64,000 nt of DNA, taken from the sequence record NC_070873.1. One strand, 5' to 3'. This document shows positions 25,107-27,397 of the stretch, one piece after another. Positions within the stretch are counted from its first letter, which is position 1. Every line of letters starts with the position of its first letter. Under the pieces are notes generated by a model that did not search any database, was not told the origin of the DNA, and saw only the letters and a list, made by a program, of their open reading frames with translations. This DNA comes from Escherichia phage St11Ph5. The position numbers were made by a program, and so were the translations under genes.

Positions 25107-25908
25107 TCTGGTAGGTGGCTCAGAAGCTGCTGCTAGGTGTGGTAGTGTTTATAGTCCTGATGCTACTACTGGTCAGGATTATAGACGTGTCGGCTCCATA
25201 CATAGCTTTTATCATCACTGTCATTATCCTGTGGAAATGCAGTGGTAAACACGGTGGTGACAAGCCGCCAGAGTAACAACAACCGAACCAGTGTGCAGGA
25301 ATACTCTCCCCTGTGCATTGGTTCAACTGAGGCCAATATGAACAAATTTACTATTCACTGGTTTAATGGAAAGGTTAGTTCTTTCATGGGTGGAGAACCT
25401 GCTGAAGGAAAGAAAGCATTTCACATTGAATCAGAAGGCTGCAAAATCTTAGTACCGTATGTTTGGTATAAAGATGGTGAAGTAGAAGCATTAAAAAAGA
25501 GTAGTTAATATCGTGAAGGGTTCTGTTAGAATCCTTTGAGATAGGAACTCCTATCATAACCTTTCTTAACTTAATCTTTGCCGTATGGCACTGACGCTAG
25601 GGTTTATGCCCATCCGTCAGGTAGACTATTTTAAGAATGGGTTATCACAGCAAATGTAAAGCAACATTCGGGTTAATCAATGGCCTCTCCCTATAGGGGC
25701 CATTTCTGAATCTTAGGCTATATCCCAAAGGTTAGCATCTTTGGGATAAGGCTTCAGATCCCTTATCAACTAACGCTCATGCTGAGCACAACATTAACCA
25801 ATAATGTCGGATAGTTCATTACGCTATTCATCCAGCATCGAGATGTTAGGTCTTACATGTAACATAGGGTATAAAGGGAGGACTCGTCCCCTCCCTCCTA
25901 TTATAATG

Positions 25909-25978
25909 GTCGGGGTAGCACGTAGGCATGTGCAGAAGGTCGCTACTTCTCTCGCTGGTTCGAATCCAGCCCCTGACC
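25909..25978 (+). tRNA. tRNA (anticodon uncertain, possibly CGC)
   Basis: 7-bp acceptor GTCGGGG / CCCTGAC, D-arm GCAC-GTAGGCAT-GTGC, anticodon stem AGAAG / CTTCT with loop GTCGCTA, T-arm GCTGG-TTCGAAT-CCAGC; no encoded CCA; 70 nt. Confidence 0.55.
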
Positions 25979-26434
25979 TACTGACATCCTATCAATGAGT
26001 ACATTAGGCTAACGTGCGGAGGTTTACACTGTAGCCGGTGTAGGTGGAGAAGACGGCAGGGTAGCTACCTGTGCTTAGTGTACTCTTTGATAGTTTTCGT
26101 AAGCGATTATGCGGTTTTTTAGAAATGAACCAATAACATAAATGCAAACGATGATGTTGTTCTGATGGCGGCGTAATAGCCTGTAAGTCAGCAAGGTCTT
26201 CCTATTCCTTGTAAATAAATTCGGCGCAGTGGCCCGCTGTAATTAATAATGGGCACACAACAGGTAAGAGCATTGGGTAATGTCAGCCTTGGTTCGAAGT
26301 CGAAAGACATGCGGTAATACCCAGCCAAAGTTCCAGTGCTCTTTCCGTTGTGGAAATGCAAGCACAACAAGTCCAGACGATATCTGAGTGACTATAAAAA
26401 CAGATGGAGCCAGGTGGAATCCCTGGCAATCAAT

Positions 26435-26500
26435 TCCGGTGTAGGTACTAGTGTCGTGCACGGCATGAGTGTTCTGGTTCGAGTCCAGACGCCGGAACCA
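26435..26500 (+). ncRNA. tRNA-like element (acceptor + T-arm + CCA, non-canonical core)
   Basis: T-arm TCTGG-TTCGAGT-CCAGA, 3-prime CGCCGGA-A-CCA pairing with TCCGGTG at 26435; only about 31 nt between, rich in palindromes, no canonical D/anticodon arms found by hand. Confidence 0.35.
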
Positions 26501-26502
26501 AT

Positions 26503-26626
26503 TACCAGTTGCACGAGATGGCTTGACATGTTCAAGTTTGGACTAAGTGTGACACCGCTAGATTGGAGGGCTGCTGCGGTAAGCTATAGACTCCAACCGG
26601 GGGTTCGAATCCCTCACTGGTAACCA
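26503..26626 (+). ncRNA. tRNA-like element (acceptor + T-arm + CCA, extended core)
   Basis: T-arm GGGGG-TTCGAAT-CCCTC, 3-prime ACTGGTA-A-CCA pairing perfectly with TACCAGT at 26503, 2 nt after upstream element; about 121 nt, too long for a standard tRNA. Confidence 0.35.
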
Positions 26627-27350
26627 ATTCAAAGTAGCATTGCACTAATCCATCCCGGAGTTCAAAGACCAAACATGGAGCAGTGCTACTTTGAATTAGA
26701 AGAATTAAGGTGGGTCTGGTGAAGTAGATAGGGTTCGATTCCCTCCGGTAGAGTAATCTACTAGCGTGCTTGGTGCATGAATAAGACTTAATACTGGTGG
26801 TTCGATTCCATCCCCCACTACCTATTTGAGGTGTAACAGTTAAATCCAGTTGCCGGAAGTGCTATTCTAGATACGCTGCCAATGTGTGAACGGTAAGGCT
26901 GTACAGGACTCGGACTCCCACCTCAAACCAAAGTCGCCAGGTACTTATGGCAAACGGGTAGTAACGAACTAGTCATTCGTCAAACGCCCAACCTATTATG
27001 AGTCAGCAAGAACGCCTTCACTTAAACTTAAACAATATGAAAAGTTTCCGTAGATACTATATAGGGGTATGTAGGGGCTACGAAGAAGGAGCCAGTTAAA
27101 GTCTGGCATGGCTCGCCTATTAATAGAGAACATAGTCCTGATTGCATTGCACTCTAAAGACAATGCCGGTGAGACAGTCCGGCACTCTAGTTATTGTAAA
27201 CATACCCACTGACGAGTGGGTATGAGTATGAGCAGACTATAATGCTCAAATACAGTTATCTATTATCGGACTATCAATCCTGTTTGCTGGTACAAGCACC
27301 GGTGGTAATAGTTAACTGGCCTAACCTCGTTAGCTGCGTTAAAGCTACTA

Positions 27351-27379
27351 AGTCCCTCTTCGGAGGGACTTTTTTATTT
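27351..27379 (+). terminator. Rho-independent terminator
   Basis: Stem AGTCCCTC / GAGGGACT, loop TTCG, followed by TTTTTTATTT. Confidence 0.5.
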
Positions 27380-27397
27380 GAAAGTAGGAGAAATACT

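Follow-up and report, generated by a model that had tools for sequence, protein, structure and literature searches.

A phage RNA resembling the template half of tmRNA, with a putative guide to host tmRNA, in a non-coding island of Escherichia phage St11Ph5

What does Escherichia phage St11Ph5 encode between positions 25107 and 27397 of a 64,000-nucleotide (nt) stretch of its sequence record (NC_070873.1; hereafter, the window)? The initial annotation of this locus described 2.3 kb of coding-sparse DNA, dense in hairpins, that might be more than a plain transfer RNA (tRNA) cluster. The source phage is a Gamaleyavirus coliphage (G7C-like, N4-like), and its nearest record, vB_EcoP_ShWW44, is 97% identical across the locus. 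The suspicion about the tRNA cluster was borne out: ARAGORN called a single, atypical tRNA gene (25908-25979), the Rfam scan gave no tRNA above threshold, and the reading as a tRNA cluster was rejected. The annotated T-loop motif, GGTTCGANTCC, occurs five times in the window, always on the plus strand and between 25957 and 26809 (0.02 copies expected by chance; five reached in 0 of 100 shuffles). Four of the five elements carrying it were accepted neither by the tRNA finders nor by the Rfam tRNA model, and the fifth is the atypical tRNA. We found that the region from 25509 to 27398 is an island of co-oriented structured RNA genes with one strong terminator at its end (Table 1). Its centerpiece (26088-26368) appears, judging from its sequence, to be a phage RNA derived from transfer-messenger RNA (tmRNA), of which the template half was kept and the tRNA-like half lost.

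A tag core of tmRNA type

The tmRNA models were among those initially proposed for checking, and a permissive Rfam scan of the window (E ≤ 10) revealed partial matches to tmRNA_permuted (E = 7e-4) and beta_tmRNA at 26073-26225, centered on a short reading frame that we call the tag (26144-26176). GOLLD, ROOL and other curated RNA families gave no Rfam match, either at E ≤ 10 in the window or at the gathering score in eight related loci. From IMG/VR, 70 loci were gathered by an exact pattern, yielding 52 distinct cores (alignment A2). The tag frame of the window has no start codon and is preceded by an in-frame TAG nine codons upstream. Across the family, 22 nucleotide versions of the tag encode 15 peptides, every one of them 10 codons long plus a stop codon, with the consensus AN[D/E]xxx[L/R][A/M/I][A/V]A. 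This frame is open in all 22 versions, compared with 0 and 7 for the other two frames, and synonymous codons are found both at its start (GCT AAT as codons 1 and 2 in SJ3) and at its end (GCA GCC as the last two codons in ECBP1). Such variation suggests that the frame behaves as a translated tmRNA tag. In the phage tags, LMAA and LAVA take the place of the ClpX-binding LAA.

The surroundings of the frame are also those of a tmRNA template. Position -4 relative to the resume codon is A in 52 of 52 family sequences, and position -5 is U (or C) in at least 90% of them; these positions correspond to A86 and U85 of Escherichia coli tmRNA, of which A86 is conserved almost universally and is indispensable to set the frame (PMC2481249). 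The end of the tag lies in a helix-5-type stem, where A-U/G-C swaps were observed in 24 of the 52 sequences (A2 columns 89-92/118-121 and 96-99/106-110), and this stem is retained in ECBP1 despite the replacement of the part downstream. Two consecutive H-type pseudoknots, PKa and PKb, follow. Each of their four helices is paired in 96.6 to 99.2% of cases, and the whole tested structure (helix 5, PKa and PKb) in 96.3%, versus 31 to 42% when the whole structure was slid along the alignment. Compensatory changes affect 13 of the 29 pairs of the whole structure (139 cells) and 10 of the 18 pseudoknot pairs, and none of 500 shuffles of A2 reached these pairing and covariation values.

The core combines a start-less tag of about 10 codons with a hydrophobic, Ala-rich C terminus, the resume context, a helix-5 loop that contains the stop codon and, after it, pseudoknots. 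The one-piece tmRNA of Enterobacterales is alike in all this: its resume codon GCA comes after U/A at -5/-4, its 10-codon tag is of the ANDENYALAA type, its stop codon lies in a helix-5-type loop, and H-type pseudoknots stand after the frame. Unlike it, the core has no tRNA-like domain (neither an acceptor stem with G3:U70 nor a 3' CCA), carries an anti-tmRNA guide in place of pseudoknot 1 (PK1), and is phage-borne, within a chain of stem-closed cassettes. The best, although partial, Rfam similarity of the tag region is to the models of two-piece permuted tmRNA (RF04321, RF01850) of alpha- and beta-proteobacteria and cyanobacteria, which likewise consists of two base-paired chains, as would the assembly that we propose below. 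There, a single permuted gene supplies both pieces, which are joined by pairing in the acceptor and P2 helices, whereas the proposed partner of the core is an intact host tmRNA, paired via its template region.

Neither ARAGORN nor Rfam identified a tRNA-like domain for the core (acceptor stem with G3:U70, T arm and 3' CCA) in the window and 51 family loci, ARAGORN found no tmRNA in L001-L003 either, and the flanks of four aligned loci held no such domain; the Rfam covariance models matched the tag region only. The core family therefore lacks a defining property of tmRNA. Taken together, the phage core would work like the template half of a tmRNA, yet it does not appear to be a tmRNA. Two ARAGORN "tmRNA" calls among the family loci were composite artifacts. 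In Citrobacter phage Moogle, the call was assembled with a permuted tRNA-like gene that lies 500 nt upstream, beyond three tRNAs. A regular-expression search of all loci for the two-piece permuted signature (T arm, NCCA and permuted acceptor) matched solely Moogle (L078, 952-995), where three tRNAs separate the signature from the tag, and had no match in the window.

The Moogle gene itself (L078, 930-1010) is a circularly permuted tRNA-like gene within a tRNA cluster. Its order is T arm GAAGG-TTCGATT-CCTTC, acceptor 3' strand ACCCTTC, G, CCA, a 4-nt loop, GAAGGGT and a D-arm-like segment, and ARAGORN joins it to the tag 500 nt downstream as "tmRNA*". The feature table of NC_027293 places the Moogle tRNAs on the strand opposite to the ARAGORN and Rfam calls, which is probably an error of the table.

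A guide region complementary to host tmRNA

No PK1 was found upstream of the resume codon, and the conserved 5' blocks of the core had no consistent intramolecular partner. No columns of the family core vary less than these blocks (GUUUUCG, GCGAC, UUUGCGG and a U-run). Hand-built registers and RNAalifold gave no consistent fold for them; since the intramolecular folds failed, a target in trans was tested, with the ssrA gene of E. coli K-12 (L082) as the sole host target sequence. The conserved 5' part, of about 45 nt, is colinear antisense of tmRNA nt 55 to 108. The target span comprises the 3' half of PK1, A86, the resume codon (G90-C91) and tag codons 1 to 6; it is largely single-stranded and includes the single-stranded nt 79 to 107. 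Within it, UAGUUUUCGU pairs with A97-A106 (tag codons 3 to 6), GCGAC(U) with A86-C91, resume codon included, UUUGCGG with C75-A80, and the U-run with U68-A73.

The predicted duplex between the guide of the window and ssrA has 36 pairs and an energy of -39.6 kcal/mol. All 52 cores use one colinear register, with a mean of -44.1 kcal/mol and 39 pairs and a range of about -40 to -52 kcal/mol and 36 to 49 pairs. Shuffled sequences gave -25.8 ± 3.0 kcal/mol, and none of 300 reached the observed energy. The same was true of the 682 363-nt windows of the phage itself, the best of which gave -34.6 kcal/mol. Pairing of the guide with the template of its own RNA is far weaker (-15 to -34 kcal/mol). Moreover, guide columns paired with ssrA are more conserved than the rest (0.24 versus 0.48 bits). 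The longer-loop variants L005 and L006 supply the complement of CAAACG and become a near base-for-base reverse complement of ssrA; Moogle and Erwinia phage Faunus instead cover ssrA nt 80 to 94 contiguously. The complementarity is thus extended, conserved, above chance and directed to an accessible region of tmRNA.

Comparable complementarity to ssrA was absent from the other parts of 25500-27400. The lone marginal match was a 40-nt segment (26704-26743) that pairs with ssrA 323-363 (z = -3.1). Within this segment, GGTGGGTCTGGTG (26709-26721) is a near reverse complement of the tmRNA 3' end, CGCCAGCUCCACC, part of the CCA end included, which may be mere tRNA-likeness. When genomes were scanned for the variant of the target that the guide of the Erwinia phage would predict, 69 matches were obtained in unrelated bacteria, against about 35 expected by chance; the five sampled hold no tmRNA, and the result is at chance level.

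Distribution of the core and composition of the RNA island

Of 50,697 phage records, 611 carry the 170-nt core (26087-26256), and so do prophages in 137 of the 5,426 complete E. coli genomes; neither PGAP nor the depositors annotated it in any record examined. Its carriers include N4-like, T1-like (Sf11), P22-like (HK620), Felix O1-like (Moogle) and Vi1-like (SJ3) phages, as well as phages of Klebsiella, Erwinia and Vibrio. In HK620, the core is bracketed by the late promoter pR'/qut and the terminator tR'. A near-consensus sigma-70 promoter stands directly upstream of the core and guide in Sf11, P5026, L007 and Moogle, and since it abuts the core, the RNA there must start with the conserved GAUAGUUUUCG. 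In 18 of 51 family loci, tRNA genes lie directly downstream. ECBP1 and Bp4 (L074/L075, 1500-1668) have unrelated sequence plus a pseudo-tRNA (anticodon aca) in place of the pseudoknots and cassette B; they keep the guide, the tag and helix 5, which makes guide plus template the conserved minimal unit. The element may have spread among temperate and virulent enterobacterial phages through module shuffling.

The description of the locus as coding-sparse holds for 25509-27398 (1.89 kb), but the first ~400 nt contain two small genes with PHROG matches (Table 1), and it is because these open reading frames (ORFs) are real genes that the non-coding stretch begins at 25509. The first of them has a homolog at the same position in N4 (L081, ~830-1000). 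The other tested ORFs, of 95, 72, 60 and 55 amino acids (aa), matched no PHROG family. A 64-aa ORF overlapping the tRNA matched only a 40-aa family, probably itself a product of miscalled ORFs. The internal ORFs were rejected as protein-coding, PHROG support being absent.

Table 1. Features of the St11Ph5 RNA island and of the two small genes preceding it
Feature	Position	Strand	Description
Small membrane-protein gene, 53 aa	25115-25276	+	phrog_19025, E = 5e-9; outside the RNA locus proper
Small gene, 56 aa	25338-25508	+	phrog_14773, E = 3.8e-43 over full length; GAGG Shine-Dalgarno
Conserved non-coding leader	25509-25905	+	Hairpins 25515-25535, 25679-25704, 25710-25759, 25876-25895
Atypical tRNA	25908-25979	+	ARAGORN; anticodon CGC; fold z = -3.2
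Cassette A	25989-26093	+	Long stem CTATCAATGAGTACA / TGTACTCTTTGATAG closes variable 63-nt insert; 3' strand runs into the guide
Guide	26088-26133	+	Blocks UAGUUUUCGU, GCGAU, UAUGCGG, UUUUUUAG; colinear antisense to host tmRNA nt ~56-107
Single-stranded resume context	26134-26143	+	U at -5 (26139), A at -4 (26140)
Tag reading frame	26144-26176	+	GCA AAC GAT GAT GTT GTT CTG ATG GCG GCG TAA = ANDDVVLMAA*
Helix-5-type stem	26162-26191	+	Encloses end of tag frame, stop codon in loop
Two consecutive H-type pseudoknots	26192-26254	+	PKa 26192-26224, PKb 26225-26254
Cassette B	26257-26352	+	Stem ACAACAGGTAAGAGCAT / AGTGCTCTTTCCGTTGTG closes 61-nt insert
Short hairpin	26347-26368	+	GTTGTG-GAAATGCAAG-CACAAC; 22 nt, vestige of third domain
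Module M1	26370-26426	+	Pseudoknot AGTC..ATCTG..GACT..CAGAT plus hairpin CCAGG-TGGAATC-CCTGG
66-nt tRNA-like RNA	26435-26500	+	7-bp acceptor stem, canonical T arm, encoded ACCA, C3-G70
124-nt tRNA-shaped RNA	26503-26626	+	Acceptor TACCAGT/ACTGGTA, T arm GGGGG/CCCTC, encoded ACCA; from sequence and fold
Long hairpin	26626-26697	+	Inverted repeat I3, 18-nt arms 94% complementary; minimum free energy -27.8 kcal/mol
Stem-closed element with two T arms (26732, 26799)	26709-26822	+	Ends CCCCACT-ACC
Stem-closed 85-nt module, then CCA	26825-26930	+	Interior 98.9% identical to N4
Further conserved non-coding modules	26931-27349	+	Hairpins 27201-27224 and ~27160-27185; conserved in Gamaleyavirus
Intrinsic terminator	27350-27379	+	9-bp stem (27350-27371) with 5 GC pairs, then T-run; next gene from 27398

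The island is conserved across Gamaleyavirus and partially in N4. Its leader is 83 to 96% identical in 54 Gamaleyavirus records and occurs nowhere else. The hairpins initially annotated were all recovered: the 9-bp stem with a 3-nt loop at 25515-25535, the perfect 10-bp hairpin TATCCCAAAG/CTTTGGGATA within a larger one (25710-25730/25739-25759), the GC hairpin upstream of the tRNA at 25876-25895, and the 12-bp long-range inverted repeat as part of a hairpin with 18-nt arms (26626-26643/26680-26697). Covariation, also raised there, was observed as compensatory changes in several helices of the island, but the hairpins in 25515-25759 are too highly conserved to reveal any, with few changes, which are one-sided. 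The GC hairpin is the sole one of the leader with compensatory haplotypes (GGGAGG/CCTCCC versus GAGGGA/TCCCTC).

The tRNA called by ARAGORN has a 6-bp D stem and no encoded CCA. Its anticodon is that of alanine, yet its discriminator is U and its acceptor carries U3-A70 in place of G3:U70. Its top Rfam score, about 30 bits with tRNA-Sec, is under the gathering threshold (N4 tRNAs score 50 to 77 bits). It is found in ECBP1 and Bp4 and is missing from nithesis, Bas96 and L062. The deposited annotation at this site is inconsistent among ShWW44, ECBP1 and Bp4, being present in some records and blank in others.

The core is flanked by two cassettes. Cassette A is an inverted repeat (I1) with 21-nt arms, whose stem is kept in L062 around a replaced insert. 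At the position of cassette B, the long stem is present in 28 distinct flank pairs of unrelated sequence with the pairing preserved. The cassette B insert (26252-26353) is 98% identical to that of the unrelated Salmonella phage seszw, which implies a recent horizontal exchange of single RNA modules, and it is also found in Klebsiella phage P5026. In L006 and L008, the cassette insert just downstream of the core contains a hammerhead-like core, CCTGACGAGTCCATGAGGGACGAAACGC; this candidate (CTGACGAG...CGAAAC) was rejected, as no Rfam hammerhead reached the gathering score. L062 and most family loci carry GTGGTGAATGCGCAGGCTGATGCGC...GCCGGAGATCAGCACCGGCCACCAC at the position of a third domain. In full form (L001 2770-2900, L062 and others), this domain reads GTGGTG-AAT-GCGCAGGCTGATGCGC ... 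GCCGGAGATCAGCACCGGC-CACCAC, and the loops of its hairpins are mutually complementary (GGCTGAT/ATCAGC), in a design resembling the tRNA elbow.

Downstream of the core, module M1 is 96% identical in N4, is also found in KP8, DS8, Segz_1 and 9NA, and has compensatory variants in L011 (AGAC/GTCT and CCGG/CCGG). In the 66-nt tRNA-like RNA, which was called by neither ARAGORN nor Rfam, one 10-bp arm replaces the D and anticodon arms; this arm and the T stem (TCTGG/CCAGA versus GTTGG/CCAAC) show compensatory changes. The 124-nt RNA next to it, equally uncalled by tRNA finders, has an expanded D region and a 6-bp stem with a 22-nt loop. The long hairpin that follows has a fold z of -7.3, reached by 0 of 200 shuffles. 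The segment 26716-26813 is specific to the window among Gamaleyaviruses and is 79% similar to an unannotated site in the T4-like phages VR5 and VR25. The closing stem of 26825-26930 differs in a compensatory way between St11Ph5 (TTTGAGGTG/CACCTCAAA) and N4 (GTGGGATG/CATCCCAC), and a further compensatory variant of N4 (TTGG/CCAA versus CCGG/CCGG) lies around TGAGACAGT, within 26931-27349. Relatives carry a tRNA-Ile(aat) at ~27115, which the window is without, and exchange modules and tRNAs at fixed junctions. The syntenic gp47-gp48 gap of N4 holds four canonical tRNAs and the same modules (96 to 99% identity, compensatory closing stems), and the tag core is absent from it. In the N4 reference record (L081, EF056009 32112-33632), this 1.5-kb gap is without annotation; its tRNAs are Asn, Ser, Thr and Pro (50 to 77 bits), and it includes a conserved membrane-protein ORF of ~55 aa.

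The CCA-ending tRNA-like RNAs and the stem-closed cassettes are probably processing punctuation, stabilizing or cargo modules. CCA-ending tRNA-like RNAs that do not decode are known from the stable RNA species 1 and 2 of T4 and from mascRNA-type punctuation, where RNase P would set the ends of the neighbors; the likeness, by description, is confined to 26435-26626 and similar modules and does not extend to the tag core. GOLLD and ROOL are also large, modular RNAs borne by phages and prophages beside tRNA genes, and can embed tRNA-like parts. The St11Ph5 island differs from them in its hosts, in the lack of an Rfam match and in its recognizable tmRNA-derived core.

Proposed action on host tmRNA and its significance

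We established that the core is homologous to the tmRNA template, that its helices covary, that it lacks a tRNA-like domain and that its complementarity to host tmRNA is conserved. The best explanation for these findings, in which we place about even confidence, is that the core docks on host tmRNA, masks its template and probably substitutes its own, or at least blocks that of the host. Annealing in cells and translation of the phage template are what we infer from a model with the following steps. The guide would anneal to the single-stranded template region of host tmRNA, masking A86, the resume codon and tag codons 1 to 6, and the phage resume codon would then be positioned ~10 nt past the H2-proximal end of the duplex. 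When a stalled ribosome is rescued by SmpB and the host tRNA-like domain, translation would resume on the phage template, and the stalled protein would receive a phage-specified tag. The net result would be a two-piece tmRNA made of one host RNA and one viral RNA. That rescue runs on such a host-virus chimera, with a virus-chosen tag placed on stalled proteins, is the more tentative part of the model, possible rather than probable. We favor template substitution since the core conserves what a template needs (A at -4, a fixed frame of 10 codons and the stop codon in the helix-5 loop), since the resume codon would emerge from a duplex end abutting host helix 2, which is the place of PK1 in tmRNA, and since natural two-piece tmRNAs show that non-covalent assembly is workable.

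Several points speak against docking and substitution. Controls with reversed ssrA gave -22 to -41 kcal/mol, and A/U runs add non-specific pairing. A captured ssrA fragment, duplicated in inverted orientation, could have left the complementarity behind as a relic, and the duplex would have to unfold the PK1 of the host. The St11Ph5 copy itself has lost one PKa pair (T at 26203) and retains, of the third domain, just the hairpin 26347-26368. To our knowledge, the resumption of translation on a template held solely by a duplex is without precedent.

Prophage anti-sRNAs such as AsxR and AgvB are trans-acting antisense RNAs of mobile elements that base-pair with a host non-coding RNA, as the core would; the pairing predicted here is far longer, its target is tmRNA, and a replacement template is brought along. 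The guide could also be an antisense inhibitor and nothing else, which we judge unlikely, though it is the main alternative. It would block the host template or expose the duplex to RNase III, turning off tagging or all trans-translation, and the template-like part would be a stable structural body or a decoy. The same complementarity to ssrA fits such an inhibitor, and an imperfect duplex of ~40 bp is a plausible substrate of RNase III. According to the passage of PMC11915505 that cites it, mycobacteriophage DS6A encodes a partial tmRNA reduced to the tRNA-like domain, without a coding sequence, that is reported to interfere with and inhibit host tmRNA. As described there, this RNA is the mirror image of the core, which would be the tag half joined to an antisense guide. 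An inhibitor leaves unexplained the template features on which we base our preference for substitution, together with the degron-like tag peptides kept despite nucleotide variation and the synonymous changes among them. In the searchable full-text literature, we found no description of a tmRNA-like phage RNA without a tRNA-like domain or of an anti-tmRNA RNA; a preprint on the Pas small RNA proved unrelated to the tag core.

The location of the family directly upstream of tRNA genes in about a third of loci (18/51) and in the pR'-tR' leader of HK620, together with inserts shuffled like neutral cargo, would also suit a captured and rearranged fragment of ssrA that serves as structured leader or spacer of tRNA operons and late operons, its antisense arm being a leftover without a target. 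This is improbable: a leftover arm would be expected to accumulate changes or to evolve along with its own partner, but in 611 phage records from at least five phage groups the arm remains complementary to the host sequence, far more than to the diverged template of its own RNA; the guide blocks are, moreover, the most invariant columns of the RNA. Still less probable is a complete phage tmRNA with an unconventional tRNA-like domain, for which the 66-nt CCA-ending RNA (26435-26500) might be the acceptor part. With its acceptor stem, T arm, single further arm and ACCA, it looks like a shortened tRNA-like domain, and it follows the core, in the same orientation, at a distance of 70 nt. However, it has C3-G70 rather than the alanine determinant G3:U70, and it is a closed minihelix joined through its 5' end, where RNase P would cut. 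N4 has this RNA but no tag core, and the reverse is true of most family members; since its occurrence is independent of the core, we rejected it as the partner. A decaying cluster of ordinary tRNAs, with the T-loops and hairpins as remnants of pseudogenes, is very improbable: N4 does have four canonical tRNAs at the syntenic site and relatives carry tRNA-Ile and pseudo-tRNAs, but the modules are 96 to 99% identical between N4 and St11Ph5, phages of different genera, their closing stems change in a compensatory way, and the tag core is not tRNA-derived, so that covariation and tmRNA homology already contradict it.

Trans-translation is the main pathway of ribosome rescue and protein quality control in bacteria and an antibiotic target. 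If docking on host tmRNA is true, a phage RNA that blocks or reprograms this pathway would represent a novel form of host takeover, directed at a non-coding RNA, and the first case of tmRNA function split across two genomes. It would explain a conserved but never annotated element present in ~1.2% of sequenced phages and 2.5% of complete E. coli genomes, including the late-operon leader of lambdoid prophages, where expression is expected in lysogens, and would cast new light on the long-known dependence of some lambdoid hybrid phages on tmRNA. Guide plus template would also be a compact, programmable means to add chosen C-terminal tags to stalled proteins. More generally, the "tRNA regions" of phages can conceal modular RNA islands that tRNA finders do not resolve.

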